From positions 32,001 through 96,000 of the IMG/VR virus record IMGVR_UViG_3300031555_004942: a DNA stretch of 64,000 nt. One strand, given 5' to 3'. The translations under genes and the position numbers were made by a program. The notes below the pieces were generated by a model. It had not been told where the DNA came from and ran no database searches. It saw only the letters and a list, made by a program, of their open reading frames with translations. Positions 750 to 43,965 of this stretch are shown piece after piece (positions within the stretch are counted from its first letter, which is position 1; each line of letters begins with the position of its first letter). The stretch comes from a virus. Taxonomy: Duplodnaviria > Caudoviricetes.

Positions 750-1151
750 TTATTTTATAACAATACCATATTTTTTACATTTATTTATTATTTCTTCAAT
801 AGTTTTTTTACCTAAATTTCTAATTTGCATCAAATCATATTTAGTTTTTCCTTCAAAATCTGAAAGATAGTAATATCCTCCTCTTGTGCAACAATTATAT
901 GCACGAACAGAAAGATCTAAATTTTCAATAGATAGATCTCGTTGTCCATAAATCATTGTTCCATCATAATATTTAACCGTCCATTTTAATCCTTCAATAA
1001 AAGCTTTTGCTTCCTCTTCTGTTTCAAATTCTGCTATTGTATTAGATGATGAAAAAATTCCATTTGCTTTTACTTTTTTATTATCTTGAAAAATTTCTAT
1101 TTTTTTATATCCTTTTATAAGAATAATATTTGTTAAAATTTTTTCATACAT
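750..1151 (-). CDS. protein with C-terminal RNA polymerase alpha-CTD-like domain
   Basis: C-terminus SIENLDLSVRAYNC...DLMQIRNLGKKTIEEI matches the alphaCTD signature (LELSVRxxNCL...NLGxKSLxEI). Confidence 0.85.
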   Translation of the reverse strand: MYEKILTNIILIKGYKKIEIFQDNKKVKANGIFSSSNTIAEFETEEEAKAFIEGLKWTVKYYDGTMIYGQRDLSIENLDLSVRAYNCCTRGGYYYLSDFEGKTKYDLMQIRNLGKKTIEEIINKCKKYGIVIK

Positions 1152-6832: not shown

Positions 6833-7387
6833 TTAACTTCTTACATAATATGAATTTGTCCAAAGATAATCATATTTGTATTGTTGACAAATCAACAAAC
6901 ACATTCTCTGAAAGTCATAAGATGTAGAAATTATTATTCTTTTATCTCGATTCATATCATGATGGATATCGTGTTTCTGTTGAGATTGATGAATTAAACA
7001 AGTTTTAAATCCTGTTCTTTTATTAATCTCAACAAAGTTTTTAGCATCTTTATAATGAGAATAAGCAGACAAAATACTTATGATTTCTTCATTATTTTGA
7101 TGTCTTTTACGATAATGTTCCATTTCTTTTAAAAATAAATCCATTTCTTCTTTGTATTCTTTTGGTCTAATAATTGACCTTAAAACACAAAAGAATCTTT
7201 TATCACTTTCAACTATTGTATCCCATATATACATACTACATGGAATTAAACAACACATATTAATAATTAATATAATATTATTTGCCATATATGTATTTAA
7301 CATATATATGAAAAATAATAATATCAAAAGTGAAAATAATATTATTGAAATAAAAGATATTATGAATGCATTTAATGTTTTTTGCAT
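6833..7387 (-). CDS. membrane protein with two N-terminal TM helices
   Basis: Hydrophobic N-terminus; GAGGG RBS. Confidence 0.65.
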   Translation of the reverse strand: MQKTLNAFIISFISIILFSLLILLFFIYMLNTYMANNIILIINMCCLIPCSMYIWDTIVESDKRFFCVLRSIIRPKEYKEEMDLFLKEMEHYRKRHQNNEEIISILSAYSHYKDAKNFVEINKRTGFKTCLIHQSQQKHDIHHDMNRDKRIIISTSYDFQRMCLLICQQYKYDYLWTNSYYVRS

Positions 7388-7518
7388 ATTAAACTTCCCT
7401 CTTTTTGTTTTTTTTGTTTCTTACATAAGAAGAGTCCGAGGAATATTTTCAGGATTAAATTAATTATTTATCCTTATGCTATTATGTAAAATATTTTTAT
7501 TATTTTTTTAAAAATGTA

Positions 7519-7547
7519 TTGACAAATAATATCTTTTGTGCTATAAT
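7519..7547 (+). promoter_or_regulatory. sigmaA promoter, antisense to 7635-8006
   Basis: TTGACA-17-TATAAT with extended -10 TG. Confidence 0.85.
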
Positions 7548-7634
7548 ATGCATAAGCTCAAAGTAAATATCTTACTATAGCAATAGTTTATTAGAGAGAA
7601 ATATTTCTACTCCTCTCTTTGTCTTAACCTCTTA

Positions 7635-8006
7635 TCAAGAATAAGAGAACTGTATTTGTTCTGAATTACAAGAATAATTCAAAACATCTTTGTTTAGATA
7701 TCTTGGACGTATAGTGCATCCAGAATCTACATATGGAGCAACATTAGATGCAAAACAGCAAGCTACATCTAAATAGAAATATTTAGATTTTACTTTTAAT
7801 TCTGTTTTAACATCTTCTACAATTTCAGAAAGTTTTATTTTCTTACCATTGTATGTGATTGTTCCATCTTTACCTCCATGACAAATCAAAGTGGGATTTG
7901 ATTCGTCTTCTGGAAATATATAAGCATGGTCATTGATGCCTGAATTAAATTGAATTATACTTATATATTCCTTTTTACTGATAGGTATGTTTTCAAACAT
8001 ATACAC
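7635..8006 (-). CDS. hypothetical protein, possible caspase-fold His/Cys peptidase
   Basis: LICHG ... LDVACCFA pattern; AAAGGAGG RBS (start may be 8000). Confidence 0.55.
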   Translation of the reverse strand: MYMFENIPISKKEYISIIQFNSGINDHAYIFPEDESNPTLICHGGKDGTITYNGKKIKLSEIVEDVKTELKVKSKYFYLDVACCFASNVAPYVDSGCTIRPRYLNKDVLNYSCNSEQIQFSYS

Positions 8007-8226
8007 ACCTCCTTTCTATAAAATTTAAGAAGAATCGTTATACATAGATAACTCCTTTCTTTGTGTGTTTATCTTGCATTTTTGTTATTTAACACTAATA
8101 ACAGATGCTCTCAAACCTTGTTGTTTGTAGACCTACCTATTAGTAACGCTTTGAGCTTAACTACCTATTTATACTCGCTCAAACGAGTTTGAAAGAGAGA
8201 TATATTTCAATCTCTCTTTCTATAAC

Positions 8227-8481
8227 TCAAAGTAAATAGTATGGTAATTTACTACCAATGCTATATCTTTGAGCATTTGTCCTCTTATTAAGATAATAGT
8301 CTATTACTGCAATATAATCATCTATTATAGTACGATTATTATCTCTTTTATCTCTTTTTTCTAAAAGAATATTTTTATACTCTTTTAGTTCAGAAATAGA
8401 CATTTTTCTGCATTCCCATGCAATCCATTGTCTATCTCCAATAGAGATAAGAGGACAGCGTGTTCTCCATGTAGCTATCAT
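8227..8481 (-). CDS. hypothetical protein
   Basis: 84-aa ORF, AAGGAGG RBS. Confidence 0.7.
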   Translation of the reverse strand: MIATWRTRCPLISIGDRQWIAWECRKMSISELKEYKNILLEKRDKRDNNRTIIDDYIAVIDYYLNKRTNAQRYSIGSKLPYYLL

Positions 8482-8544
8482 AGGAACACCTCCTTTTAAT
8501 AAAATATTAAAGAACTCCCTATTATAGAGAGTCCTTTTTTTATT

Positions 8545-8838
8545 TTATGACCATAAAAGATTGTAATGAAGATATATATTATTTATTCTTTCATCATCAG
8601 GAGCATTATTTAAACATACTTTATTCTGAACTTCACCATATGAAATATCTATTTCTTTTTTTATTCCATATTCTACTCGATAATAAAGTTCATAATATTT
8701 TTTATCACAAACAAGAGCTTTATATAACTCCCTTATTGCTCCAAAAATATCAGTTTTTGCTATTGATATAGCTCTCCGAAAATGTTCATTTGAATATTTT
8801 TGAAGATTATTTAAATATCTTCTTGTTGTTTTTTTCAT
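8545..8838 (-). CDS. hypothetical protein
   Basis: 97-aa ORF, AGGAGG RBS. Confidence 0.7.
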   Translation of the reverse strand: MKKTTRRYLNNLQKYSNEHFRRAISIAKTDIFGAIRELYKALVCDKKYYELYYRVEYGIKKEIDISYGEVQNKVCLNNAPDDERINNIYLHYNLLWS

Positions 8839-8979
8839 CTATTTTTACCTCCTGTTATTAAAGAATATTTAATTCTTTTATAATTAAGAATTTTATTTTC
8901 ATATTCTTCTCTGCCTTGTATACTATAAGTTGCTCCTGACTTTATATTAGCAGCAACTTTTTTAATTTGGTCTGTTTTT

Positions 8980-9465
8980 TTATTTTCTTTTTCTTTTATT
9001 TCTTTTGTCATAGTATTCAGCTTCCTTTCTTCGAGATATTATGTTTTTTAATTTTTTTATACCTCTTTCTTTTCTTTTTTTAAGTACATTAAGATTTTCA
9101 TATGATAAGAATTTTTTTATTTCGCTCATAGAAAAACCCATATAATATAGCTTTAGAACTCCTTGATAATAAAAAGGAAGTTCATCTATATCTTGAAAGA
9201 TATTCTGAATATTTTCATATTCAATAATTATATCTTCTGGATTTATAAATATCCATTCAGATATATAAACTTCTTTTATGTTCATTTTAGATTTATCATA
9301 AAATTTAATACATAAATTTAAGAGATTGTCAAATGATAAATCATTTGTTTCTAAAGCTTCAAGATATGTCTCTTGGACAATATCTTCGGCTAACTGTATA
9401 GAACATCCTAATGATAAAATCATATTAATTAAAAATGTTCTTTCTTCTTCAGTAACTATATACAT
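8980..9465 (-). CDS. ECF-type sigma-factor-like protein
   Basis: Region 2 motif AEDIVQETYL; region 4-like IDELP..YQGVLKLYY.GFSMSEI; ATG 9465 after AAGGAG. Confidence 0.7.
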   Translation of the reverse strand: MYIVTEEERTFLINMILSLGCSIQLAEDIVQETYLEALETNDLSFDNLLNLCIKFYDKSKMNIKEVYISEWIFINPEDIIIEYENIQNIFQDIDELPFYYQGVLKLYYMGFSMSEIKKFLSYENLNVLKKRKERGIKKLKNIISRRKEAEYYDKRNKRKRK

Positions 9466-9466
9466 T

Positions 9467-9808
9467 TTAATATCTCCTTTTAATCTCTTGCAGATATGTT
9501 GAATCATCAACATGATCTTTTAATTCAATTTTTTGCAGATATTCTTTAGGATTTGATGCATTTACAGTATAATCCTGTTTATCAAATTTTAATTCATTAA
9601 AAGATACTTTTATAATAGTATCTTCTATATACTCTCCTGAATTGAGAGCATAAAAATCGTATGTTTCTCCATTTGGATGTAACACAGTTATTACTTTATC
9701 ATGTTCTTGAGTTACTCTACAATACCGAATTGTATGAGCTTTACTATACATTGCATAACTTAATCCTATTACTGCCACTAAACCTATAATTACTAAAATT
9801 TTTTTCAT
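9467..9808 (-). CDS. membrane-anchored or exported small protein
   Basis: MKK followed by hydrophobic signal-like N-terminus. Confidence 0.7.
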   Translation of the reverse strand: MKKILVIIGLVAVIGLSYAMYSKAHTIRYCRVTQEHDKVITVLHPNGETYDFYALNSGEYIEDTIIKVSFNELKFDKQDYTVNASNPKEYLQKIELKDHVDDSTYLQEIKRRY

Positions 9809-9944
9809 ATCAATTACCTACCTTTCTTTCTCTTTTGAGCATAAGAAGATATGAGTTTGAACTCATGCAGAGAATAAATATTTTTTAGAGTATAATTAAA
9901 TACTCAAAGAAAGAGAGAGGAATATTTCTATTCCTCTCTAACTT

Positions 9945-10175
9945 TCAGTATTTAACTGAATATTCCTCTTCAATGAAGTCTTCGACCATATCTTTAAAAT
10001 GGTCTGAATTAATAGAATCTGCTTTATTTAGTATATTGCAGAATTCATTAATTCTTTGCTCAGAAGAAGTTAAATCTTTATATTCTTCACTTCCTCTTTT
10101 TATCCCATACCGAAGATATGTATTACCTTCGATGGTAATATTATTTTTAATTACCTCAAATTTTTCTTTTGCCAT
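9945..10175 (-). CDS. small protein resembling DUF6514 family
   Basis: YGI...DLTS....INEFCNILN...I...HFKDMVEDF pattern. Confidence 0.55.
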   Translation of the reverse strand: MAKEKFEVIKNNITIEGNTYLRYGIKRGSEEYKDLTSSEQRINEFCNILNKADSINSDHFKDMVEDFIEEEYSVKY

Positions 10176-10324
10176 GATTTGTCATTCCTTTCGAACTTAC
10201 GTACCCATCTCGTAAGACTATGACATGACACATAGTTTTATTTTTTTCTTTTGGGTGTGAGATATTAAATATCTCTATAAAGATACAACTTATGTTATAC
10301 CTTTATAGAGGCATTTAAGCCTCT

Positions 10325-10462
10325 TTACCAATTTAATGTTGTTGCAGTCATAAGACCCCATATCAACATAAATTCAGTAGTAATAAATAAAAGAATAGAG
10401 ATTCTTATATTATCTCTTCTTTCTTTAGCTCTTTTTATTTTGTTAATTCTTATATTCGTCAT
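10325..10462 (-). CDS. 45-aa membrane peptide MTNIRINKIKRAKERRDNIRISILLFITTEFMLIWGLMTATTLNW
   Basis: Manual translation; GGAGG RBS; shares LIxGLMTATTL with 6252-6437. Confidence 0.7.
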   Translation of the reverse strand: MTNIRINKIKRAKERRDNIRISILLFITTEFMLIWGLMTATTLNW

Positions 10463-10495
10463 TGTTTTTTTCCTCCGTTTTAAGTTTTATTATAT

Positions 10496-10951
10496 TTATG
10501 CTACTGATTTTAATATATTTAAACTCTTTGTTAGTTCGTTAATGATTTGATTATTGTTAGAATATCTCAATATATTTCTTATTATCTTTTGTGCATATTT
10601 AATTTCAAAGCTTGTTGATTTGTTAGAAAAAGCATTATTAATAATTCTTTCGCCTATTGCATCAACATGAATATTTAAAGAATTTGCAGAATTAAGATAT
10701 TGTATAAGGTAAACTCTACCCCAATATAAAGAATTATCTTTGCCATTTGTCTTTTCGTTTATTTTTGAAGATGCTTTATAAATACGATTCATTTCAAGTG
10801 TTGATTTGATGGAGTTTTTGTTTCGATATTCGTTCATAACATTTAAAAAATTTTCAATGTCTGCTTTGTGGTTTTTAGTATTAAATTTTACTGACAATTT
10901 AATTGATATTGTCTTAATTGTGTTTACGATAATGTTGATGATTTTTTTCAT
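10496..10951 (-). CDS. basic hypothetical protein
   Basis: Likely start ATG 10951 after AAAGGA. Confidence 0.65.
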   Translation of the reverse strand: MKKIINIIVNTIKTISIKLSVKFNTKNHKADIENFLNVMNEYRNKNSIKSTLEMNRIYKASSKINEKTNGKDNSLYWGRVYLIQYLNSANSLNIHVDAIGERIINNAFSNKSTSFEIKYAQKIIRNILRYSNNNQIINELTKSLNILKSVA

Positions 10952-11964: not shown

Positions 11965-11993
11965 ATTATAACATATAAAACAATAAATGTCAA
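11965..11993 (-). promoter_or_regulatory. sigmaA promoter for 11278-11907
   Basis: TTGACA-17-TATAAT on minus strand; nearly identical to 13010-13038. Confidence 0.85.
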
Positions 11994-12033: not shown

Positions 12034-12741
12034 TTATTCTTTTAAATTGGTTTTCATAGAATCTATATAAGTTTTTAATAAATCTTCATTTATTGGTTGC
12101 AAAGTATAAATAAGGGGATAATTTTTTACTATTCCATTTTTAGTAATATAAGTCCCAAGGTTATAAGTATAAATCAAATTCATATCTTTAAGGATTGCGA
12201 TTGTATTTAAAATACTTTGTTTAGAGAGTTTAGAGTAATCATGTAAATTTTCTAAAGAAGGATAACCATAAGGGATATTTTCCTCATGAAAGTTCATAAA
12301 TTTTTTAATAATCAAATATAGATAGATAGTATTATCAATATAAGATTTTGTTTTAGATTTATTATTCAAATAATAATTTAAGATAGTATTAATTTCAGAA
12401 TCCTCAAGAATAACGAAATTAGATTTAAAATTTATACAAACAGGGATATTATTTTCTTTTATAAATTTAAGAGTATAAATAGATTGTTTATTATTAGAAT
12501 TTTCATTTATCAAAGAAATAGAATTATTAGTAATCATTTTATGTAAAGAAGATTTAAAAATAGTATTAATCCCATTTTCTTTAGTAGAAGGAGAATATCC
12601 ATAATATTTAACCAAATTATTAATATCAAGATATATATATCCATTTCTACATTCAGTAGCATAAAGATACCAAGTCAACATAATATCTTTTTTAGAATTA
12701 GGATTAGTCAAAGAAGATTTATCAATTTTAATATAAAACAC
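12034..12741 (-). CDS. winged-HTH DNA-binding / replication-initiator-like protein
   Basis: C-terminal YPSLENLHDYSKLSKQSILNTIAILKDMNLI resembles the HTH of phage replication initiators. Confidence 0.55.
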   Translation of the reverse strand: MFYIKIDKSSLTNPNSKKDIMLTWYLYATECRNGYIYLDINNLVKYYGYSPSTKENGINTIFKSSLHKMITNNSISLINENSNNKQSIYTLKFIKENNIPVCINFKSNFVILEDSEINTILNYYLNNKSKTKSYIDNTIYLYLIIKKFMNFHEENIPYGYPSLENLHDYSKLSKQSILNTIAILKDMNLIYTYNLGTYITKNGIVKNYPLIYTLQPINEDLLKTYIDSMKTNLKE

Positions 12742-12885
12742 AATAGCACCTCATTTATTTTTATTATTATTTTTATTTTGATTTTTAGAGATTAAACAAC
12801 TGACCTTTAAGCGAAGCGAAAGGTATTCATAATATTATTAAAGGATCTTTTATTATTAAATGGATCATATATATTATTACGGTCT

Positions 12886-13000
12886 AGTTTTACCCCAAAA
12901 AATCGGGAACTTTTTCAATGTTTTTAAAAAGATCCCTAAAAAAACAGGGAACTTTTTTTATTTTCGTAAAAAGTTACCCAAAAAAAACGGGAACTTTTTC
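12886..13000. repeat. three 42-bp-spaced palindromic direct repeats (iteron- or operator-like)
   Basis: CCC-A tract-GGGAACTTTTT with GGGAAC at 12905, 12947 and 12989. Confidence 0.8.
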
Positions 13001-13009: not shown

Positions 13010-13038
13010 ATTATAACATATAAAAAAACAAATGTCAA
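13010..13038 (-). promoter_or_regulatory. sigmaA promoter, leftward (HTH gene)
   Basis: TTGACA-17-TATAAT. Confidence 0.85.
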
Positions 13039-13078: not shown

Positions 13079-13107
13079 TTGACAAAAATACAAATAGATG
13101 ATATAAT
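13079..13107 (+). promoter_or_regulatory. sigmaA promoter, rightward (operon containing YonO-like RNAP)
   Basis: TTGACA-17-TATAAT with extended -10 TG. Confidence 0.85.
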
Positions 13108-13176
13108 AAAATCAGTTAATGATAAAGTAATATTATAATAATCATTAACAATGCAATAATGGAAGGAGGAGGGGTA

Positions 13177-13773
13177 ATGAATGAGGAATCTAACACAAGA
13201 CCAAACTTGTACATAGATATAGACAGTACAATCATAAATACAGCAGAGACATTTATAGATATGTATTGTAAGAAAAAAGGAATAAAAAAGAATTTTTATG
13301 ACCTAAAAGATTGGAAGTTCAGAAGTATAGATAGAAATATAAATGTAAAAGAATTTTTAAATTATATAGAAACAGAAGAATTTTTTAATAAAGTACAATT
13401 TTATGATGATTTTTTAAGATTTTATGTAAAATATGGAGACAAGTTTAATTTTATTTTTGTAACTATAGGAAGTAAAAAGAATTTAGAGTTAAAGAAAAAG
13501 TTTATATTTAGAAGTTTACCAACGATAGAAAATGTAAAATATATTGGATTAGAAAACAATAAAAATGATATAGATATGAGTAATGGAATACAAATAGATG
13601 ATAAATATGACAATTTAAATACTAATGCAAAGTTAAAGATATTACAAAAAAATAATATTGAAACAGATTATAATCAAGTAAAAGAATATAGAGATGATTT
13701 ATATATAATGCAAGATTGGAAACAAATTAGTGAAAGTTTAGAATTTATATTAAGAAACAAAGAATTATTTTAA
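13177..13773 (+). CDS. HAD-family 5'(3')-deoxyribonucleotidase-like protein
   Basis: YIDIDSTI (DxD motif I) and IDD (motif IV). Confidence 0.7.
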   Translation: MNEESNTRPNLYIDIDSTIINTAETFIDMYCKKKGIKKNFYDLKDWKFRSIDRNINVKEFLNYIETEEFFNKVQFYDDFLRFYVKYGDKFNFIFVTIGSKKNLELKKKFIFRSLPTIENVKYIGLENNKNDIDMSNGIQIDDKYDNLNTNAKLKILQKNNIETDYNQVKEYRDDLYIMQDWKQISESLEFILRNKELF

Positions 13774-13796
13774 TAAAAAAGAAAGGGTGAATTCAT

Positions 13797-14198
13797 ATGA
13801 ATAATGGATTAACACAATATCAGCAGTTAATGCAAATCAAGGGAATGAATAGAGCTGAAAAAAGAAAATTAGCAAAGAAGCTAAAAATGTCTTATACTGA
13901 TTTAGTAAATTCATTAAATTTTGAAATTGCGGATATAACTGTAGAAGAACTCCCAGAGGGAACGTTAGTAAAACTTAAAACAGATAGGATTTTAGATAAA
14001 AAACAAGAATTAAGTGAAACGTACATAAAATGGGTAGAAGATAATCGAGATAAAGTGTTTACATGTGAGAAAGATCCAAGTTTAGGAGATGATTCTAAGA
14101 GAGTTGTTCTCAAAGAAGATGAAACTGAACCAAAATGGATATTCCATGTTAGTGATTTAGAATTAGTGTTAGACGAGAAAGAAATATTCAATCAATAA
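13797..14198 (+). CDS. hypothetical protein (NRxExR motif)
   Basis: 133-aa ORF with RBS. Confidence 0.7.
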   Translation: MNNGLTQYQQLMQIKGMNRAEKRKLAKKLKMSYTDLVNSLNFEIADITVEELPEGTLVKLKTDRILDKKQELSETYIKWVEDNRDKVFTCEKDPSLGDDSKRVVLKEDETEPKWIFHVSDLELVLDEKEIFNQ

Positions 14199-14216
14199 AA
14201 GATTGGAGTGTATTTA

Positions 14217-17117
14217 ATGCCTAACAGATTATTTTATACAGCAAAATTTGATAGTGATTATATTATTTATTGTAAGTCTGATATAAGAGCAAATTTTTTT
14301 GAATTATTTAGGGCAGGAAATATTATATCTTTAGCAGATTCCCAGATGTTAAAAACCATAAGGCAACTTACAAATCATATTGTTGATTTAAATAAAATAG
14401 AACAGTGGTATGAAGAGCGAGATAGAATAAAAAAGAGAGCAAATTCAAAAGAAAATCGAGAGAGAATCAGAAAATTACAAAAAAATATATATGATATGAT
14501 GTATATCCCTGAATACATAACAGTTGTAATAAATAATGCTAAACATTATGAAAAATTTTTCAAAAAGGGATTTTATTTCAATGGAGAAAAGTATACGAGG
14601 TTTTCATGTTCTGCTTCACAAGCAAGAGTTTCTACTGTTGTATTTATAAAAGATAGTTTAAAAGAACAGATGAAGGAAATATTGGATAATGGAAGAAAAT
14701 TAGATAAAGCTATTGCACCGAGCAAATATAATGCATATTTTGGATTATATTCATCAGCAATAAAAGAAGTAACAGCTCCTAGATTTTGTATAATACCTGA
14801 TTTTTGTGAAACAGATAAAGTTATAGTTGATTATATTATTACAACAGATGATTATTCAGATGATATTGTAGAAGAAAGACAAATAGAAGTAGAATTTAAC
14901 AGATTTGATGGAGGAGGATTAATAACTCCTCAAATGGCTGAACAATGGAGTAAAGATATAGGAATTTATTTTCCTGAAGAAGAAAAAGAGGAAAAAAGAG
15001 GATATATTGCTTGTCAATTCTGTATAAGACAAAGTTTTGCAAAAGGTATGTTGAATGTTTTTGAAACAGAATTATTTTGTAGAGAAAAAAATAATGGAAA
15101 TTACATAGTAAAAGATATCTATGGGAAAGATGTAGATTTAAGAGAAATAGATGTTATTTTAACAGAAGGACAAGTTAAATTATGGGATTCTTTTGGATAT
15201 GAAGATGAAGAAGGTAATTGGATTCCTTCTCAGGAAGTATATGAAAACAATATAAAGAAAAATAATATTGTTTGGGGTGTAACCAGATTTACTCCAGAAG
15301 AAGATGATAAGACATTAATAACAAATTATCAATTTTTACAAACATTAAAAATGTCTGATGAAGATATAAAAGAGTTATGTCAAACTACTGTTGATTATAT
15401 TACAGGAGTTACTAATGAAGATTATAATTATGCTTTATTATTTATGCTTGGAGAAAGTATGAATGAGAGAAAGATGCAAAATTATATGAAATCAAGCGAT
15501 AATTATTGGTTAAAAAGTTTAATTTGTAATCCTGATTTATTTAATGATAAATACACTAAAGAGAAGATACGTGATTGTATAAAAAGAAGAATTGAACAAG
15601 CATGTATTGGTAAGATAATGGTTGAAGGAAACTTTCAAGTAATTATTCCTGACAGTTATGCTTTAATGGAATGGGTTTGTTATAGAGACTCAAATAGAGT
15701 TAAAGGATTATTAAGAGCAGGAGAATGTTATAGTAAGTTTTGGAAAGATAGAGATAGTAAGACCATATTATCTCAGAGAAGTCCATTAACACATTTTAGT
15801 GAATGTCATTTATTAAATGTTGTTTGGAATGAAGAAATTGAAAAATGGTTTAAATATAGTTATACTGGTTTTTATATTAATACTCATGATGATAGTACTA
15901 TGAGATGGGCGGGTGCGGATTTCGATTATGACATTGTTGCAAGTACTAATAATCCAGTAATGATTAGAAGTGTTTACAAAAACCAAAAACCAGTAACATA
16001 TGATATTCCAAAACCTTTTAAAAAAGTATTTACAGAAGAAGATTTATATATAGCAGATGTAAAGACATTTGGTTCATTAATAGGACCTTTAACAAATAGA
16101 GGTACAAGCATTGTTGCTTTAATTTCGGAATATAAACAACGATTTGATAAATCAGGATTAGATGGAGATAAGAAAAAATTAGAACTTTTACATAATCGTC
16201 TAAAAATGGTATGTGCAAGTCAGAGTAGGCAGATAGACAAAGCTAAGATTGGCAAAGAAGTAAAAGGAATTCCAAAAATTTGGACAAATTATCAGCATAT
16301 TAGTATAGAAGATTCTGATGAAGAGAAAAAAAATAAGGAATTTTATAATAGTCTTTTATGTGATAAGAAACCATATTTCTTTAAATATGTTTATAAAACA
16401 GAAAATAAAAAATACAATCAATATTGTAAAAAAGTTGATTTAAGATGTTATAGTTTGTTTGATATTACATTAAAAGAATTATTATCAAAAGAGGATAAAA
16501 CAGAAGCTCAAGAAGAATTTATCAGATCATTTAAGGATAAAAATGGATTTATAAATTCAGAATGTGAAATGAATAAAATATGTTGGTATATAGAAAATGT
16601 TTTTAAAGATATAAATAAAAAAGTAAGAGATGGTTCATCTTTTGATTATACATATTTTATAACTGATGAAATTGAATTTGATAAGCACAAATATAATCAA
16701 ATTAAAGAATTTTTAAACTTATGTTTAAGTAAAAAAAGAGACAGTATTGGTCAGAAAAACAAGAAAGTTTTTTCAGAAGAGAAACTTATAAATAATAATT
16801 CTGACAAATCTGATGATAAAAATACATGGGTACAAGATATAAAGAATGAATTATATCAAAAATATTGTTCTAATGGATATGAATTAACTAATTATTTAAT
16901 TAAATTTTTCTATGAAGATAAGAAGAATTTTAGCAAAAATACCTTATGGAAAATATGTGGAGATGTTTTATATAATATATCTTTAGAAAAAAGTAATGGA
17001 AATATAACAATACCTATCAAAGATCAAAATGGAGATATAGAATTTTGGTTTGATAAGTTTTCTGTACAAAACATTATTTTAGAAAAGGAGAAAGAATCAG
17101 ATGATAAAAATATTTGA
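14217..17117 (+). CDS. YonO-like single-subunit DNA-dependent RNA polymerase (two-barrel, RdRP-like)
   Basis: FDGGG, QFCIR..FAKG, QRSP, GADFDYD, IGPLTN and QIDKAK motifs; SPbeta-like gene context. Confidence 0.85.
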   Translation: MPNRLFYTAKFDSDYIIYCKSDIRANFFELFRAGNIISLADSQMLKTIRQLTNHIVDLNKIEQWYEERDRIKKRANSKENRERIRKLQKNIYDMMYIPEYITVVINNAKHYEKFFKKGFYFNGEKYTRFSCSASQARVSTVVFIKDSLKEQMKEILDNGRKLDKAIAPSKYNAYFGLYSSAIKEVTAPRFCIIPDFCETDKVIVDYIITTDDYSDDIVEERQIEVEFNRFDGGGLITPQMAEQWSKDIGIYFPEEEKEEKRGYIACQFCIRQSFAKGMLNVFETELFCREKNNGNYIVKDIYGKDVDLREIDVILTEGQVKLWDSFGYEDEEGNWIPSQEVYENNIKKNNIVWGVTRFTPEEDDKTLITNYQFLQTLKMSDEDIKELCQTTVDYITGVTNEDYNYALLFMLGESMNERKMQNYMKSSDNYWLKSLICNPDLFNDKYTKEKIRDCIKRRIEQACIGKIMVEGNFQVIIPDSYALMEWVCYRDSNRVKGLLRAGECYSKFWKDRDSKTILSQRSPLTHFSECHLLNVVWNEEIEKWFKYSYTGFYINTHDDSTMRWAGADFDYDIVASTNNPVMIRSVYKNQKPVTYDIPKPFKKVFTEEDLYIADVKTFGSLIGPLTNRGTSIVALISEYKQRFDKSGLDGDKKKLELLHNRLKMVCASQSRQIDKAKIGKEVKGIPKIWTNYQHISIEDSDEEKKNKEFYNSLLCDKKPYFFKYVYKTENKKYNQYCKKVDLRCYSLFDITLKELLSKEDKTEAQEEFIRSFKDKNGFINSECEMNKICWYIENVFKDINKKVRDGSSFDYTYFITDEIEFDKHKYNQIKEFLNLCLSKKRDSIGQKNKKVFSEEKLINNNSDKSDDKNTWVQDIKNELYQKYCSNGYELTNYLIKFFYEDKKNFSKNTLWKICGDVLYNISLEKSNGNITIPIKDQNGDIEFWFDKFSVQNIILEKEKESDDKNI

Positions 17118-18057
17118 TGAAAAAGCTTATATAGATATATATATAAAACAAGGGTTTAAAAATTTACATTCATGGACTAGAGATGCTATATTATATGTAA
17201 GATGGCTTAAACTTCCTTACGAACAAGGAGGTTGTGGTAGAGAGTTATCTAAAAAAGAATGTAAAGAAGAATTAATTAGAATTTGTAAAAAAAGTATTCC
17301 ATTATTTAATGAAATGTCAGATTATAAAAAAATTGAAAATATTATAAAAAAAGCATGGGCAAATAAAGAACCACTATTACAAGTAAAAAATATACGTATT
17401 AGTCATACATTATTTTCATGGTTTAAAAAACAAGGATTGAAAAAAAATGAATTAAAATTATTATTTACTTTATATGTGGGATATTTAATCAAGAAAAACA
17501 ATTTAAAGATTAAAGATGCTACATGGTTTGGGCAGATAACAGACAGGGAGTTTTTAAGAAGTAACTCAAACATATCAAGTAGTTTTTCTATTAAAAAAGC
17601 ATTAAATTCATTTAGGGATAAAGGGTTAATTGATTTAAGAGGAGAATATTTTTCTATAATTTTTATTAATCGTGAGGATTTTAAGGTTTGTGAAAATAAT
17701 GTTAGTAATTTAGAAACTCTAACAGGATATGATTTAGAAAACATAGGGGAAGCCTTATATAAATTTTATGACAATTATAGATATTGTGATGATTGTGGAA
17801 GATTAATTGATAAGACAAAATCCACGAATAAAAAATATTGTGAAGAATGTGCTAAGTTACATAAATATAAGCCTCAAGGGACTAAAGTTGTAACATGTAA
17901 AGATTGTGAACGTCAATTTGAAACATCTGCAAAAAACAATAAAGAAGAATACAGATGTGAAGAGTGTTACAAAAAACATAGACGAAAGAAAAAAGCTGAA
18001 ACTATGAGAAAATTACGAGAAAAAAAGCCTATGTGGTCAGGACAAATGGAAAGTTGA
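17101..18057 (+). CDS. Zn-ribbon protein overlapping the RNAP gene end (possible transcription factor)
   Basis: Four CxxC pairs at C-terminus; overlaps RNAP stop codon. Confidence 0.65.
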   Translation: MIKIFDEKAYIDIYIKQGFKNLHSWTRDAILYVRWLKLPYEQGGCGRELSKKECKEELIRICKKSIPLFNEMSDYKKIENIIKKAWANKEPLLQVKNIRISHTLFSWFKKQGLKKNELKLLFTLYVGYLIKKNNLKIKDATWFGQITDREFLRSNSNISSSFSIKKALNSFRDKGLIDLRGEYFSIIFINREDFKVCENNVSNLETLTGYDLENIGEALYKFYDNYRYCDDCGRLIDKTKSTNKKYCEECAKLHKYKPQGTKVVTCKDCERQFETSAKNNKEEYRCEECYKKHRRKKKAETMRKLREKKPMWSGQMES

Positions 18058-18272
18058 AATGATTTTTTATAAGGTTTTTTTGCTGATGTTTATTAGAAAA
18101 AAAGGGATCGAAAAAAATAAAAAGTCGAGATTTCATTTATGGAAGAGAATATAGTTCTCATAAATAAAATAATTAAGATAAATTATATATTTATCGAATG
18201 AAGCGTAACATTTCAACACTAAATAAAAAAAAATTATTAAAGGGACTTTATAAGTCGAAAGGAGAAATTAAA

Positions 18273-18542
18273 ATGAAAAGAGAAGATATGATTAGAAGAA
18301 TTGCTCAGAGAGCTAACATGACACAGAAGGAAATCCTTCCTATTTTGGAGGTAATTGAAGATGAAACACTTTTTGCGATTTCTAATGAAGAAGAAATGCC
18401 ATTTAAATTTGGAAAAATTGGTGGCAAGACAGTTCCTGCAAGAAATGGAGTAAATCCAAAGACAGGAGAAAAGATTAAGATTGAAGAAAAGAGAGGATAT
18501 CCTTATTTCAAGGCATCATCAAAAGCGAAAGGCAAGAACTAA
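18273..18542 (+). CDS. HU/IHF-family DNA-binding protein
   Basis: FGK...PARNGVNPKTGEKIKI...PYFKAS. Confidence 0.9.
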   Translation: MKREDMIRRIAQRANMTQKEILPILEVIEDETLFAISNEEEMPFKFGKIGGKTVPARNGVNPKTGEKIKIEEKRGYPYFKASSKAKGKN

Positions 18543-18580: not shown

Positions 18581-18620
18581 GAATAAGATGAGAGGAAGTA
18601 AGACACTTCCTCTCTATTTA
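18581..18620 (+). terminator. hairpin, probable terminator after HU
   Basis: AGAGGAAGT/ACTTCCTCT stem. Confidence 0.5.
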
Positions 18621-18770
18621 TTATATTTTAAGTAATTAAAACAAGTATTATCTAATATTGTTTTTATAGTTTTTCATATACATCCTTTCTTTTTTACAAA
18701 TATAAATAGATAATGCTTGTTTTAATTATTTAAAATATGATAATAAAAATCAAATTTTATTATATAAAAA

Positions 18771-18817
18771 ATACAATATATAGTGTATTATATTTATATA
18801 TATACTATATATAGTGT
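18771..18817. promoter_or_regulatory. tandem NrdR-like boxes, site 1
   Basis: ATACAATATATAGTGT (18771) and ATACTATATATAGTGT (18802), 31 bp apart. Confidence 0.75.
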
Positions 18818-18854
18818 AAAAAAAAGTTATTAAAGGAAAGAAAGGAAAATAAAA

Positions 18855-21801: not shown

Positions 21802-24800
21802 ATGATAAATGATTCATATAATCAAATTGATGTAAAAATAGTGCATAAAAATGATACTTATGAAAATTGGACAAAAAACAATCCTGTTTTATTAAATTCA
21901 GAGATTGGGTATGATACTACTAATAAAAAAATTAAAATAGGTGACGGTGCGACTAATTGGAATTCTTTACCTTATTATGATGAAGACTATATTAATGAAA
22001 AAATTGCAGAATTAGTTGATACAGCACCAGAAACTCTGAATACACTAAATGAACTTGCACGAGCTTTGGGAGATGACCCGAATTTTGCTACAACAATAGC
22101 AAACCAGATTGGTAACAAAGTAGATAAAATTGAGGGAATGGGTTTATCTGCTAATAATTTTACAAATTCAGAAAAAGAAAAACTTGCTAATTTATCAAAA
22201 ATTCCTATTAATAATGGTACTGGCAAAAATAGTATAGTTATAAATGATGGTGAGGCAAATGGAGAATATTCAGTTGCTGGGGGTGTTACAGATAAGAGTG
22301 TTATAGAGTCTCTTGTAGGTAGTGTTGCAGCTTCGTTAGTTAAGGTTGATAAAGCTAAAGCAAATGGAATTATGTCTTTATCTTATGGAGTAAATACAGA
22401 AACACAGACTTCAGGAAGTATGGCTCTGGGAGTTGATAATATTGTGGGTGTTAAAGGTTATTATTGGCACACAATAGATTTTATAAATAAAACAATAACT
22501 CTATCTACTAATAGACCAACGACATTATCAGGTTCTGTAAAAGCTCCTAGTAATTTAGATTGGGAAGTTGGTGACTACATATCAATTACCAATGAAAGTA
22601 ACTATCCATTCTGTACCAAGATTACCGCAATTACAGGCAATATTATTACTGTTGAATCATTGCCGTTTAAGAGTAATCCATATGATACAAAAAAAACAAT
22701 ACTTGGTCAAGAGGTAATAGTTTATCCTGCAGTATATGCCACTCCATACAATAGAACTATTTATGCAGTATATCGAGATGAATATATATCTGTTCTTGAT
22801 AAAACTATAGAACATTGGGCTTTTAGAAATGGTATTGTAGAGTTAGGTTTTGGTGGAACGGCTATTGGTGCTTTAAATAAAGTGTCTGGATTGGTGGCAT
22901 CTGCAAAAGGCTTTGAAAACTTTGCAGTTGGAGACTATTCTGAAGTTTCTGGATCACATAATATTGCTGGAGAATATGCTTCTGCAAGAGGATTTTGGAC
23001 TAAAGCATTAGGTCGATTTTCAACAACTGATGGTAGAGGTACTGAAGCTTTGGGAGAAGCTCAATATGTTCATGGTAAGTATAATATCCTTGATCCAAGC
23101 AATAAATATATCGAGATTGCTGGTAATGGTAAAAATGAAGATAATCGTTCTAATGCTTATACATTAGATTGGAATGGTAATGCATGGTATGCAGGAAATG
23201 TTGATGCTACAGATGGTAATTTTTCTGGTAATGTATCTGGTACAAACGCAAATTTTAGTGGATATGTAACTGATGGCTCTGGTAATAGACTAATAGATTC
23301 AAATACTGCAATAAATAATGCGGCTAAATGTTTTGGAGAAGAAGTTTTAATTAATGGCGATAATTATGTAGAGTATTTTAATGCTCTTGGCATTAAAGAT
23401 TATTCTATTACAGGAAATGGAGCTGTGACTACTTATGATGAATCTACAAATTCTTATTACCTGCCTATAACTTGTGGAGTTAAAGAAAATATAAAAGCTG
23501 TTGATGGAGATAAATATTTATTGATTGAGTCTCCTACTGCCGCTATAGCACATCGCTTTATTCATTTATTACGAAATGATAATACAAATATAGTAGAGAT
23601 AGGTCATTCGTATACTTTTACTGCATGGTGTAAGACAAAGAAAGGCACTAATACTGTTAAAACACATATTAGTTCATCAGCATTAAGTACAAATACAATT
23701 ATGCCAACTCAAACAAAAGCTTCAGCCGTAACTATCAATAGTAATGAATGGACAAAAGTTATTGGAACTTTTAATATTATAGAGGCAACTGGAGATAAAA
23801 CTCAAAATAATGGATTTCATTTAGGAGTTGAATTTACATCTTCTAATTTTAGTGATATATATATAGATAATTATTGTCTTGTAGATAATGAAAATCCTGA
23901 TGTGAATTTGCTTGAACATAGTATTGCTAAAACTAACAGTAAATATGTAAAGTGTGATTATATGTTTGAAGGCATTAATGGGACTATAGATGGACTAGTT
24001 AATGGTACTGCTTCTTTTGTAGAAGGTGGTACTGCTGATTATATTCCATCTTCTGTTACAGTTAATATTCCTGTAGATGCGGAGACTTTTACAGGCACAT
24101 TAAATTATGTTAACGATAGTTTGCCTGAATTACCCGCATTTTTTGGATATACATCTACGTATACACTGGAAACAACATCTGACGTAATATTTGATCTAGT
24201 ATGCTACAGTAAGATAAATTCCCCTACAAAAGTATCCCAGCTTGAAAATGACATAGGCTATCTTACAGAGCATCAGGACATATCGGGAAAAGCTGATGTA
24301 AACCATAAGCACCCTGAGTATTTAACCGAACATCAAGATATATCAATAAAAGCTGATATAGACCATACTCATACAGGGGAGCAGGTAAATGTGACATTGG
24401 AAATACTTGATGATAACAGAGAACCTACAGGCGAATCATCAACAATATCTTTGAACGAATTTGTAAATCAGGTGGTTTTATTAGAGGGTAGAACTATTAT
24501 TGAAGGTATAATCAATGAGATTGACATCATAAATACCGATAAAGTGAACAAGTCAGAGTTGGAGACAAAGGCAGACAAGACTATCATACAAACTGATACC
24601 GAAGCGACAGAATATGCATTTGACTTTTCTGATATGTATAACAAGGAAATGAGATTGCAATCAGCATCTTCTATAAGTATTAAATTTGCAGACAATGAGT
24701 ATGCGAATGACTATATCTCAGGGTTGAGCTTTAACAGTGGTGAAACACCTACAGGATTTGATTATGCTGATAGTGGTATCATAAATTGGGTGGGAACAGA

Positions 24801-24939
24801 TTGTGTAAAGAATGGAGATCTCTCTATATTCCAACCGTCTGCCAATACTCATTATGACATTGTGTTTTATTTTAATGGTGTGCAGTTTATAGGACTAGTA
24901 AACGGCTTTGTACCTGCAATAGGAAATGAGGCGGTATAA
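21802..24939 (+). CDS. tail-fibre/adhesin-like protein (Mtd-N-like domain, fibre motif, YadA-like repeats, possible CBM)
   Basis: NPVLLNSEIGY...KIGDG..WNSLPY; APETLNTLNELARALGDDPNFATT; A.G..S.A.G repeats; YLTEHQDIS twice. Confidence 0.75.
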   Translation: MINDSYNQIDVKIVHKNDTYENWTKNNPVLLNSEIGYDTTNKKIKIGDGATNWNSLPYYDEDYINEKIAELVDTAPETLNTLNELARALGDDPNFATTIANQIGNKVDKIEGMGLSANNFTNSEKEKLANLSKIPINNGTGKNSIVINDGEANGEYSVAGGVTDKSVIESLVGSVAASLVKVDKAKANGIMSLSYGVNTETQTSGSMALGVDNIVGVKGYYWHTIDFINKTITLSTNRPTTLSGSVKAPSNLDWEVGDYISITNESNYPFCTKITAITGNIITVESLPFKSNPYDTKKTILGQEVIVYPAVYATPYNRTIYAVYRDEYISVLDKTIEHWAFRNGIVELGFGGTAIGALNKVSGLVASAKGFENFAVGDYSEVSGSHNIAGEYASARGFWTKALGRFSTTDGRGTEALGEAQYVHGKYNILDPSNKYIEIAGNGKNEDNRSNAYTLDWNGNAWYAGNVDATDGNFSGNVSGTNANFSGYVTDGSGNRLIDSNTAINNAAKCFGEEVLINGDNYVEYFNALGIKDYSITGNGAVTTYDESTNSYYLPITCGVKENIKAVDGDKYLLIESPTAAIAHRFIHLLRNDNTNIVEIGHSYTFTAWCKTKKGTNTVKTHISSSALSTNTIMPTQTKASAVTINSNEWTKVIGTFNIIEATGDKTQNNGFHLGVEFTSSNFSDIYIDNYCLVDNENPDVNLLEHSIAKTNSKYVKCDYMFEGINGTIDGLVNGTASFVEGGTADYIPSSVTVNIPVDAETFTGTLNYVNDSLPELPAFFGYTSTYTLETTSDVIFDLVCYSKINSPTKVSQLENDIGYLTEHQDISGKADVNHKHPEYLTEHQDISIKADIDHTHTGEQVNVTLEILDDNREPTGESSTISLNEFVNQVVLLEGRTIIEGIINEIDIINTDKVNKSELETKADKTIIQTDTEATEYAFDFSDMYNKEMRLQSASSISIKFADNEYANDYISGLSFNSGETPTGFDYADSGIINWVGTDCVKNGDLSIFQPSANTHYDIVFYFNGVQFIGLVNGFVPAIGNEAV

Positions 24940-26551: not shown

Positions 26552-26815
26552 ATGGAACTTTATAAGTTTATAAGCGAAACAGAGATTAAGAAGTATAAAG
26601 GTGGATTTGTTGTTGTAGATAATACAATATACACAAATCCCAAAGAAGAAATAATAAGGATGGCAGGATATAAAGAATTAATTGATACACCTATCCCTGA
26701 ATATAATCCTGAAATAGAATATATTGTATTAACATATCAGGATGGTGAAAAAATTACTCCTTGTTATACTGTAAATCAAATAGAGTTCATGGAAGAATTA
26801 GAAGTAATAGAATAA
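26552..26815 (+). CDS. small fibre-assembly-like protein
   Basis: TNP......AGYK...P.YNPE motif; follows fibre genes. Confidence 0.55.
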   Translation: MELYKFISETEIKKYKGGFVVVDNTIYTNPKEEIIRMAGYKELIDTPIPEYNPEIEYIVLTYQDGEKITPCYTVNQIEFMEELEVIE

Positions 26816-26843
26816 TAAAAACTGAATTTTATTGTATAATATA

Positions 26844-26891
26844 GCACAACATATAGTGTATGATTTTATTTTCATACACTATATATAGTTG
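26844..26891. promoter_or_regulatory. tandem NrdR-like boxes, site 2
   Basis: GCACAACATATAGTGT (26844) and ACACTATATATAGTTG (26876), 32 bp apart. Confidence 0.75.
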
Positions 26892-26930
26892 TGATTTTGA
26901 AATGTTTTAAAGGAGAAAGAGGTGAAAAAT

Positions 26931-28223
26931 ATGCCTAAAAAAAGTCAAAAAGTAGAAACAGTTGGAATAAATGAAGTAAAACGAAAGTTAGGACCAATGG
27001 GGAAAAAAATAAAAGAATTTTATAGAAACCAAGATGATGTTATTGGGACATATTTTTCTCCACAATCAGAAAAAATAAAAGAAGATAGAAAAATATGTAC
27101 TATGTGTAATAAACCTTTACCTGCAGGTGATTTTTGGCAAAGTTTTTCATATATTAATTCTGCAAGAACAGATATTGATAGTAAGATGCATTTACCTGTA
27201 TGTAAAGCATGTTCTCAGAAGTTATTTGATTATTATTACGAAAAAGTACATCATAAATCCTATGTAAAAGCAATGGAACATGTATGTTGTGATTTGAATT
27301 TATATTGGGATATAGATATATTCAATGCTTGTAAAGAAGTGTATGAGCATAACCAGAGAAAACTACATATATTGTCTGAGTATGTAGGTGCTTTAAGTAG
27401 AAGAAGTGCTAATTTTATCGGACAGACTTATTGGGATAGTCCTACAATAGTGAATAGAAATATAACTATTGTTCAAGGACAGAATCAAGATTTTGAAAAA
27501 AAACTCATTAATCCTGAGGATAATCCTGAATTATTAAAGGATGGATGGGATACCCCTTTAGATTGGGAAAGGGAAGATGCAGAAAATAGAAAAAAAATTA
27601 TACGTGTATATAGATATGATCCGTTTGAATATGAAACGGACGAAGATAAAAAATCACTTTATAGGGATTTAGCAGCAATGTTAGATGATGCAATGGAAGA
27701 TGATTTTGTTAAATCTAGAGGTGCTTTAGAAGTAGTTAGAGGTTTTAATAGAATAGAAAAATTAGGTAAAAAAATAGCAATATTAGAAAAAGAAGAAGCT
27801 GAGGCAAATGTTATTCAAAGATATGTTGATATGAAAACTAAAGAACGTGCTTCCATTACAGCATATTGTAAAGATAATGGTTTTGCTGCAAGCTATGGAA
27901 CAAAAAAAGCAAAAGGTGCAGGAACATTATCAGGAATTATGAATGAAATGAATGAAAAACAATATGAAAGAGGTATTTTAAATAGGTTTGATGTTAAAAC
28001 AAGTGAAAGTATTCAACAAGCAGCTAATGCATCTGTAAGAGCTATTTTTGACCAATTAAATATTGGAGGTAATGAACAATATACTATTATTCAACAGCAA
28101 AGAGATTTGATTTCAAGTTTGCAAAAAAAACTAGATAATGCTGAAGAAGATTTAAGAAAAGCTGAATGTAAAATAGTTGAATTAAAATTAAATAAACAAT
28201 TGGAGGAATCTGAAGATGATTAA
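26931..28223 (+). CDS. putative terminase small subunit (Zn finger)
   Basis: CTMC...VCKAC; overlaps start of the large terminase gene. Confidence 0.6.
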   Translation: MPKKSQKVETVGINEVKRKLGPMGKKIKEFYRNQDDVIGTYFSPQSEKIKEDRKICTMCNKPLPAGDFWQSFSYINSARTDIDSKMHLPVCKACSQKLFDYYYEKVHHKSYVKAMEHVCCDLNLYWDIDIFNACKEVYEHNQRKLHILSEYVGALSRRSANFIGQTYWDSPTIVNRNITIVQGQNQDFEKKLINPEDNPELLKDGWDTPLDWEREDAENRKKIIRVYRYDPFEYETDEDKKSLYRDLAAMLDDAMEDDFVKSRGALEVVRGFNRIEKLGKKIAILEKEEAEANVIQRYVDMKTKERASITAYCKDNGFAASYGTKKAKGAGTLSGIMNEMNEKQYERGILNRFDVKTSESIQQAANASVRAIFDQLNIGGNEQYTIIQQQRDLISSLQKKLDNAEEDLRKAECKIVELKLNKQLEESEDD

Positions 28224-43784: not shown

Positions 43785-43879
43785 TAAAAAATTTATCAAA
43801 AGGAAGATAAGCTACAAGAGTAGTTTATCTTTTTTTTGCATAAAAATGTAATAAAATTATTTTTTTATCGTATATTTTA

Positions 43880-43927
43880 CCACAATATATAGTATTACAT
43901 ATATGATGCCTATACAATATATTGTGT
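43880..43927. promoter_or_regulatory. tandem NrdR-like boxes, site 3
   Basis: CCACAATATATAGTAT (43880) and ATACAATATATTGTGT (43912), 32 bp apart. Confidence 0.75.
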
Positions 43928-43965
43928 TTAAAAATTATTATAAAATATGATTGGCAGGTATTGTT

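Follow-up and report, generated by a model that had tools for sequence, protein, structure and literature searches.

A YonO-family RNA polymerase gene with a glycine-less metal loop, its linked zinc-ribbon gene and candidate late promoters in an IMG/VR phage genome

Which RNA polymerase (RNAP) reads which genes in a phage whose DNA encodes at least one such enzyme of its own? The question was raised by a 64 000-nt stretch of DNA (the window), which corresponds to bases 32001-96000 of the 117,109-bp IMG/VR virus record IMGVR_UViG_3300031555_004942 (CheckV completeness estimate 67%). The element under study is a polymerase gene at 14217-17117 (+) and the operon that surrounds it. Coordinates are window positions unless marked genome. 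The GC content is ~26% and the strand polarity of genes switches near 12.8 kb, with minus-strand genes left of the switch and plus-strand genes from 13.1 kb rightwards. An original prediction, made from the sequence alone, had given the early genes to a virion RNAP, the polymerase operon to the host RNAP and the late genes to the YonO-like RNAP encoded at 14217-17117. We consider it reasonably probable that the last of these is an active, non-virion, YonO-type DNA-dependent RNAP, made early by the host enzyme and reading the late genes together with a partner protein. To our knowledge, the family from which the eukaryotic RNA-silencing polymerases also arose has just one characterised member from bacterial viruses, YonO.

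The polymerase and its two barrel signatures were located as follows.

14217-17117 (+): YonO/RdRP-family single-subunit two-barrel RNA polymerase, 966 aa (PF05183, YonO homology, AlphaFold 2/Foldseek)
14901-15047 (+): beta-like barrel signature, RFDGGG (D231) ... CIRQSFAKG (R271, K276), invariant columns in 99 homologues
15774-15932 (+): beta-prime-like barrel signature QRSPLT (R521, P523), then the metal loop D568-F-D-Y-D572 (alignment)

The open reading frame (ORF) has 969 codons, opens with GTG at 14208 and ends at 17117; translation more probably starts at ATG 14217, which GGAG precedes by 8 nt. The product matched the Pfam family RdRP PF05183 (E 2e-13, 50.4 bits for a cut-off of 23.8, aa 112-697 covered), phrog_8308 (E 2.5e-144) and, by blastp, YonO of phage SPbeta (E 6e-31, 26% identity across 535 aa). 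Searching GenBank phages by tblastn gave 41 records. Bacillus phage BUCT082 was the best of these (41% identity, full length), followed by Enterocloster phages, Clostridium phage c-st and Thomasclavelia phages, and the SPbeta-group yonO genes all matched (25-26% identity, E ~1e-21). Megablast of the 13-21 kb region against phages gave no match. In the PDB, the single sequence found no match and the profile only a weak one to RDR2 (E 0.14); it was a fold search that linked the polymerase to solved structures. The AlphaFold 2 model built from 99 homologues had a predicted local distance difference test score (pLDDT) of 90.5 and a predicted template modelling score (pTM) of 0.86. Foldseek matched it to plant RDR2 (7w82, E 1e-16) and fungal QDE-1 (2j7n, 3e-13) with probability 1.00, next to crAss gp66 (6e-5) and P74-26 gp62 (4e-4) together with P23-45 gp64, and then to P23-45 gp96.

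Eight residues are common to two-barrel polymerases: the Asp triad and R-x-P on the beta-prime-like side, and an Asp and two basic residues on the beta-like side (PMC2919709). All were present (D231, R271, K276, R521, P523, D568, D570 and D572) and occupied invariant columns in the 99 homologues. The profile aligned the beta-like stretch to the Arabidopsis RDR2 motif DG.G.IS...Q.R....KG, the first basic residue being Arg as in RDR2. On the beta-prime-like side the polymerase contains the motif WAGADFDYDIVAS, with DFDYD at aa 568-572 (nt 15918-15932). By profile, homology, fold and catalytic residues, the ORF 14217-17117 is thus a member of the YonO/RdRP family.

The canonical loop of such enzymes is DxDGD, and in place of its Gly at position 4 the window polymerase has Tyr571. 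The exchange of DFDGD for GADFDYD with all three aspartates kept had been noted before, and the alignment bore it out. A HMMER search recovered 1,531 family members at E <= 0.001 among 50%-identity representatives. The loop alignment comprised 118 full-length sequences, namely 113 representatives (reaching down to 29% identity), the window protein and the polymerases of BUCT082, PMBT24, TR-TP1 and SPbeta (YonO). The Asp triad was invariant in 118/118. Position 4 was Gly in 80 sequences, Tyr in 12, Phe in nine, Ser in nine, Leu in three, Met in two, Thr in two and Ala in one, so the loop Gly was absent from 38/118. The loop reads DNDGD in YonO, DFDGD in PMBT24 and TR-TP1, and DFDYD in BUCT082, a cultured Bacillus phage. 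All of the 120 closest database proteins (identity >=40%) had D[FYW]D[YFM]D, and none had Gly.

In a FastTree phylogeny the window clade comprised 17 representatives; position 4 was bulky and hydrophobic (Tyr, Phe, Met or Leu) in 16 of them and had reverted to Gly in one. Well-supported branches require that a bulky residue was gained independently nine times or more, and Ser, Thr or Ala roughly nine times. The question of whether DFDYD is clade-specific therefore received a divided answer, since it is typical of the window clade (16/17) yet has also arisen repeatedly elsewhere in the family. The loop Gly does not define membership of this polymerase family. As judged from the alignment, DFDYD is a tolerated, clade-typical and recurrent spelling of the metal loop that carries no sign of inactivity. 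An aromatic residue stood at position 2 in 26/26 loops with a bulky residue, against 42/80 loops with Gly. This coupling of positions 2 and 4 is suggestive; a test by independent contrasts did not confirm it (median p 0.25). The recurrent Gly-less D-aromatic-D-hydrophobic-D loop appears to be newly documented in the YonO/RdRP family, and it offers a natural series in which a glycine long treated as universal was replaced many times. In phi14:2, a crAss-like phage, the gp66 enzyme has a DFDID loop, requires each aspartate and is active, and Ile or Val occupies the position in all crAss-like phages (bioRxiv 10.1101/2020.03.07.982082). The window polymerase is likewise probably catalytically active, because everything else is strictly conserved and the variant persists through deep divergence and in a cultured phage.

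The polymerase gene lies in an operon with the following elements, flanked on its left by leftward promoters.

13079-13107 (+): consensus extended sigmaA-type promoter of the polymerase operon, TTGACA-17-TGaTATAAT (12/12 with spaced TG)
13010-13038 (-): divergent perfect sigmaA-type promoter of the leftward winged helix-turn-helix/early genes (12/12 with TG)
11965-11993 (-): further perfect leftward sigmaA-type promoter (sequence match)
13177-13773 (+): NT5C-like HAD-family protein, first gene of the operon (ORF opens at 13159; ATG 13177 behind the strong Shine-Dalgarno sequence GGAAGGAGGAGGGG)
13797-14198 (+): 133-aa protein (ORF)
17101-18057 (+): polymerase-linked protein, 318 aa (17-nt overlap with the polymerase stop; AAGGAG 8 nt before the ATG)
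18198-18542 (+): HU-family DNA-binding protein, positional equivalent of SPbeta YonN (PF00216, E 1e-15)
18590-18614 (+): strong intrinsic terminator closing the polymerase-HU operon (10-11 bp stem, five GC pairs, T-run)

The operon promoter consists of TTGACA (13079-13084), a 17-nt spacer that includes TG (13099-13100), and TATAAT (13102-13107); it stands back to back with the promoter at 13038-13010 (-). Perfect TTGACA-17-TGnTATAAT promoters occur 12 times in the genome, for 0.025 expected from shuffles. None of the 12 falls between 13.1 kb and 79 kb of the window, and no minus-strand consensus promoter was found left of 11.9 kb in the window. Eight metagenomic relative loci with DNA (L008-L015) were compared, and a consensus sigmaA-type promoter precedes the polymerase operon in L008, L009, L010, L012 and L015. 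The operon is thus very probably read by the host sigmaA holoenzyme. Both the consensus promoter and its use by the host RNAP were part of the original prediction, and this is the best-supported part of its three-layer scheme because the promoter is perfect and is present in relatives.

The NT5C-like protein matched phrog_420 (E 3e-14) and, below the cut-off, Pfam NT5C (E 0.0017). A homologue lies directly upstream of the polymerase in 8/8 metagenomic relatives, which places the gene in the core polymerase operon. The 133-aa protein had no Pfam or PHROGs family match, and its homologues were confined to the closest relatives, L008, L009 and L013. The gene order from polymerase to HU is common to SPbeta, BUCT082, PMBT24, c-st, TR-TP1 and the metagenomic loci.

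Two further features of the promoter region were recorded. Eight of the 12 perfect promoters point rightward inside the leftward early region, antisense to its genes (window 2866, 4303 and 7519, +; genome 6965-23847, +), and only two, at 11993 and 13038 (-), point leftward. Between the leftward promoter and a HTH_36 gene (12034-12741), window 12880-13000 contains three direct repeats CCC-A7-CGGGAACTTTTT at 42 bp spacing. L008 and L013 have similar AAAAAAATCGGAAACTTT repeats at the corresponding position, and the repeats resemble iterons or operators.

As had been noted, the polymerase gene overlaps a gene with four CxxC motifs; the overlap measures 17 nt. The 318-aa product comprises an N-terminal helical domain, a predicted winged helix (~aa 100-225), two Zn ribbons (nt 17785-17967) and a basic C-terminal helix. 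The CxxC motifs begin at aa 229, 247, 266 and 286 and form the two ribbons; their eight Cys are invariant in 21 homologues. By sequence homology, the partner gene was found downstream of the polymerase in 12/12 other loci (BUCT082, PMBT24, c-st, TR-TP1 and L008-L015), overlapping the polymerase gene in ten of them. In TR-TP1 it begins 3 nt past the stop, and in L011 it lies five small ORFs away. The partners of the window subclade have two ribbons, whereas those of BUCT082, c-st and PMBT24 have a single one and that of TR-TP1 lacks any. SPbeta has no separate partner gene; YonO itself ends, in its last 45 residues, with a CxxC-N14-CxxC ribbon and a basic tail, and the ribbon is homologous to the partner ribbons of c-st (E 1e-5) and BUCT082 (E 7e-5). 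This ribbon links partner and polymerase through a gene fusion.

The AlphaFold model of the partner had a pLDDT of 84. Foldseek against the PDB gave no match at E <= 0.001. An all-against-representatives fold search aligned aa 100-225 to the winged helices of ORC2, Nse1, MCM8 and the CAP/FNR DNA-binding domain (Z 5.3-7.1). No homology to TFE or TFB was seen, and the likeness to the TFE architecture (winged helix plus Cys4 ribbon) is an analogy only. The predicted architecture suits a DNA-binding partner of the polymerase, and the protein may be its initiation or specificity factor. The identity of the YonO promoter and the need for a factor were left open in the YonO study (PMC5467207). A winged-helix/zinc-ribbon partner linked to the polymerase in every other locus examined, with its ribbon fused in YonO, appears to be a new observation.

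Two of the compared loci had peculiar polymerase or partner genes. In L010 (logan SRR27608074 contig, 7001-10820) the polymerase (48% identical) reads through only with TAG=Q, and the partner gene alone has ten in-frame TAG codons, which indicates a stop-codon-recoded phage of the same lineage. In c-st (L004 3887-6996) the YonO-like polymerase is annotated as two ORFs, CST179 and CST178, ~370 nt apart, and may be split or interrupted.

Candidate start points for late transcription were found rightward of the terminator. The motif TTTTATYRTATA occurs four times in the window, for 0.73 expected; all copies are on the plus strand and intergenic (18755, 26827, 43863 and 49981). They lie in these elements.

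18742-18820 (+): late element 1, AATAAAA-N6-TTTTATTATATA and two 16-bp palindromic boxes, a candidate late promoter with operator
26814-26895 (+): late element 2, before an unassigned 433-aa ORF, after which come the genes of the terminase large subunit and portal (exact 14-mer AATTTTATTGTATA)
43850-43930 (+): late element 3, before ORF 43951-45390 (motif and palindromes)
49968-50048 (+): late element 4, before 50010-51319 and the giant tape-measure ORF (exact 14-mer AATTTTATTGTATA)

The four copies align across ~90 bp and have in common AATAAAA, a gap, a T-rich 12-mer and two 16-bp palindromes 31-32 bp apart. The T-rich motif contains TATAAT, TATATT or TATAAA. In the elements the TG misses the register of an extended -10 by one base, while TGnTATAAT is kept by each of the 12 sigmaA promoters. 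Late element 1 follows the HU terminator directly and precedes a block with a glycosyltransferase, a phosphoesterase and a tail fibre. In SPbeta, late-gene transcription by YonO begins between yonN (HU) and yonK (PMC5467207). Late element 1 occupies the same place, between the HU gene and the late operon. In L008 and L011, whose polymerases have 88% and 49% identity to that of the window, the HU terminator is followed directly by the exact 14-mer AATTTTATTGTATA. The chance of finding this AT-rich 14-mer in a 17-kb locus was estimated at ~0.01, before the same position is required.

The eight 16-bp palindromes (CACAATATATWGTG-like) form four pairs 31-32 bp apart, at 18772-18818, 26845-26892, 43881-43928 and 49999-50046. 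No others are present in the 117-kb genome, and the pattern agrees with that of NrdR boxes. Since L008 and L011 have the promoter-like 14-mer without palindromes, the 14-mer was taken for a putative late core promoter, to which the window phage would have added the palindromes as an operator. The composite of promoter and boxes had no other exact occurrence in IMG/VR. The 14-mer itself appears to be a new candidate for a conserved late promoter. As a separate observation, the Rfam DUF3800-VIII RNA (RF03075, 47.5 bits) lies upstream of yonK in SPbeta and BUCT082 (L003 8009-8074 and L001 8632-8697), inside the long non-coding stretch that is crossed by the YonO-dependent late transcript.

According to the reading that we favour, the host sigmaA holoenzyme would make the polymerase early from the consensus promoter at 13079. 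The transcript would encode the NT5C-like protein, the 133-aa protein, the polymerase, the winged-helix/zinc-ribbon protein and HU, and would stop at the terminator at 18590. The polymerase would then transcribe the late region, including the tail fibre, terminase, portal and giant tape measure. Its most likely start points would be the four AATTTTATYRTATA elements, on each of which two 16-bp palindromic operators are superimposed. The winged-helix/zinc-ribbon protein, whose translation is coupled to that of the polymerase, would be its DNA-binding partner and serve as an initiation or specificity factor. A late role is proposed because of the SPbeta precedent (PMC5467207), the same gene order, and a late region that has the four elements instead of consensus sigmaA promoters; the predicted reading of late genes by the YonO-like enzyme is thus retained as an inference. 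The phage enzyme is placed at the late elements because of the same precedent, the co-conservation of the 14-mer with the polymerase, and the TG that is out of register.

A bolder form of this reading takes the partner as the promoter-specificity or initiation factor of YonO-type enzymes, AATTTTATTGTATA as the first defined promoter of the class, held under a host NrdR-type repressor that senses deoxynucleoside triphosphates, and the hydrophobic pair at loop positions 2 and 4 as the replacement for Gly. We regard the whole of it as doubtful. If it were true, SPbeta would retain only the ribbon of the factor, fused to YonO. The locus and its relatives offer testable items in any case: a partner of DNA-binding type, a 14-mer at the expected start of the late operon, and a series of Gly-less loops.

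The closest characterised system is SPbeta YonO. It belongs to PF05183 like the window polymerase (26% identity over ~530 aa) and has the Asp triad. Its locus also has a divergent regulator gene, the polymerase, a HU-like gene and a late operon, from which a late-gene role may be drawn by analogy. Unlike the window enzyme, YonO has a DNDGD loop with Gly and is a protein of 839 aa with one fused zinc ribbon and a basic tail, where the window has a duplicated ribbon on the separate 318-aa protein. The SPbeta region examined contained no 14-mer similar to AATTTTATTGTATA. The closest cultured relative is the BUCT082 polymerase (UAW07825.1; 41% full-length identity), which has DFDYD, a downstream zinc-ribbon gene and a HU gene. 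It is annotated as a hypothetical protein, its partner has one ribbon, a 515-aa gene stands upstream in place of the NT5C-like gene, and nothing in BUCT082 matched the polymerase region of the giant ORF.

QDE-1 and RDR2 (PDB 2J7N, 7W82, 7EU0), which gave the best structural matches along almost the entire chain, belong to the same Pfam family. They have the motif DG.G...R....KG of the first double-psi beta-barrel (DPBB-A) and a DbDGD-type loop at the same position. These enzymes are eukaryotic, act on RNA or single-stranded DNA in silencing and have Gly at position 4; the window gives no hint of a silencing role. The virion RNAP gp66 of crAss-like phi14:2 (PDB 6VR4) is, like the window polymerase, a single-chain two-barrel enzyme, active with a Gly-less DFDID loop (Foldseek E 6e-5). 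It differs in being a 2180-aa virion protein of Bacteroidota podophages, with a beta-branched aliphatic instead of an aromatic replacement and an independent origin.

The Thermus phage P23-45 (PMC10770324; PDB 8H2M, 8F72) offers a close parallel for two polymerases. It is a siphophage with a DFDGD-bearing giant tape measure and a second, free two-barrel polymerase, gp64; its transcription is staged and also uses the host polymerase, and the gp96 and gp64 structures are weak neighbours of the window model. The second polymerase gene of P23-45 is read by the virion enzyme and the late genes by the host polymerase, whereas in the window the polymerase gene has a host promoter and the phage enzyme is expected to act late. 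Judged from the sequence, the pre-early placement of the non-virion polymerase gene has no counterpart here, where a perfect sigmaA promoter present in relatives is found instead. The tape-measure RNAP gp96 is proven, and its putative counterpart in the window was recognised by motifs. Many phages encode two such polymerases according to the survey in the P23-45 paper (PMC10770324). A phage with two polymerases is therefore an already established pattern, which tempers the first reading of the window.

Besides the polymerase, other window proteins bear on transcription or mark the late region.

51324 onwards (+): giant ORF, >4,225 codons, tape-measure core (PF10145, phrog_4211)
750-1151 (-): alpha C-terminal domain (alpha-CTD) protein (PF03118, E 4e-17)
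8980-9513 (-): weak sigma-like protein (phrog_1740, E 2.5e-5; Sigma70_r2 13 bits, below the Pfam cut-off)
21802-24939 (+): tail-fibre gene, in the plus-strand region
28216-30537 (+): terminase large subunit, in the plus-strand region
30905-32785 (+): portal, in the plus-strand region

The giant ORF contains FHRFPS and, 38 residues on, NLDFDGD at aa 2032, a spacing as in beta-prime-type barrels. It also has the tape-measure core (PF10145 E 5e-25, phrog_4211) and a DEDD-type exonuclease domain (phrog_192, E 5e-9). For aa 1150-2250, no homologue was found by word-index search or by locus search of viral contigs, in the BUCT082, PMBT24 and TR-TP1 genomes, or by tblastn against GenBank phages. The region likewise had no PDB sequence match, no hhalign match to the YonO-like profile and no Pfam or PHROGs match on sub-regions. 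The ESM Atlas returned unnamed viral clusters and nothing else, among them an RdRP cluster (0.76) that is a lead only. From its motifs, a polymerase in the giant ORF is plausible, and we lean towards it. The claim of two distinct two-barrel RNAPs thus stands for the YonO-like, non-virion enzyme and, for the giant ORF, at the level of motifs. The predicted alpha-CTD protein was recovered. The sigma-like protein was recovered as a weak match to phrog_1740; its Sigma70_r2 score stayed below the cut-off and no Sigma70_r4 match was found in the genome.

Several observations weigh against the reading that we favour. The 14-mer was not found after the HU gene in L009, L014, L015, BUCT082 or SPbeta, and at this place L013 has the sigmaA-like spelling TTTTATGATAT. 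Apart from a one-base shift of the TG and the lack of a -35, the late 14-mer resembles the downstream half of the phage sigmaA promoters (TTTTATGATATAAT). The host repressor that matches the paired boxes, NrdR, normally acts on host-polymerase promoters. The window itself encodes the alpha-CTD protein and the weak sigma-like protein. The winged-helix assignment is fold-class evidence only, with middling scores (Z up to 7.1). The non-Gly loop of gp66 was crystallised in a non-catalytic conformation (bioRxiv 10.1101/2020.03.07.982082). Much of this would suit a host core polymerase that reads the late genes from the four -35-less, -10-type elements, redirected by the sigma-like, alpha-CTD or winged-helix/zinc-ribbon protein and gated by NrdR, with the YonO-like enzyme kept for a narrower task (one transcript class, a non-coding RNA or primer synthesis). 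The TATAAT, TATATT or TATAAA of the motif, the NrdR-like spacing of the boxes, the alpha-CTD protein and the sigma-factor PHROG match encoded upstream all speak for such an arrangement, and the middle and late genes of P23-45 are indeed read by the polymerase of its host (PMC10770324). We nevertheless judge it unlikely: the late genes of SPbeta are silent without YonO (PMC5467207), the TG departs from the register kept by 12/12 sigmaA promoters, and the sigma-like match is below the Pfam cut-off.

The full three-layer relay, in which an injected tape-measure RNAP reads the early genes, the host polymerase only the YonO-like operon and the YonO-like enzyme the late genes, draws on the HRFPS-38 aa-NLDFDGD signature, tape-measure core and exonuclease domain of the giant ORF. 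It also draws on P23-45 gp96, which is a proven virion RNAP fused to a tape measure and likewise escapes sequence searches (PMC10770324), and on the absence of minus-strand consensus sigmaA promoters left of 11.9 kb in the window. It is at odds with the two perfect sigmaA promoters (13038 and 11993, -) at which the leftward genes adjoining the operon begin, since the host polymerase can start those genes. Moreover, the small pre-early set transcribed by the P23-45 virion enzyme takes in the second polymerase gene, which has a host promoter here, and neither homology nor fold evidence was obtained for the giant-ORF polymerase. The relay is possible but rather improbable; of the predicted layers, that of the host polymerase for the operon is well supported, the assignment of early genes to a virion RNAP is not, and the relay order remains a proposal. 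Far less likely still is a catalytically impaired or non-transcribing relative (an RNA-dependent polymerase or structural remnant) in which the loss of Gly reflects relaxed or altered function. Gly was present at position 4 in every RNAP studied before crAss gp66 (bioRxiv 10.1101/2020.03.07.982082), and QDE-1 relatives can copy RNA (PMC9508822). YonO, however, is strictly DNA-dependent (PMC5467207). In addition, the triad and the other catalytic residues are invariant across hundreds of homologues, the Gly-less state persists through a clade spanning 40-88% identity and originated repeatedly, and full-length ORFs are conserved with their partners coupled. The YonO-type, host-made late polymerase thus remains the reading that we prefer.

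A few minor features of the window were recorded. A tRNA search of the window found none. A tyrosine-integrase-like gene (47369-48409; phrog_1, E 5e-31) occupies a central position among the plus-strand late genes. In the minus-strand early region, adjoining ORF 7635-8006, the Rfam Pistol ribozyme RF02679 was matched at 8127-8188 (-) over the full model length (59.6 bits for a gathering score of 34.5, E 3e-8).

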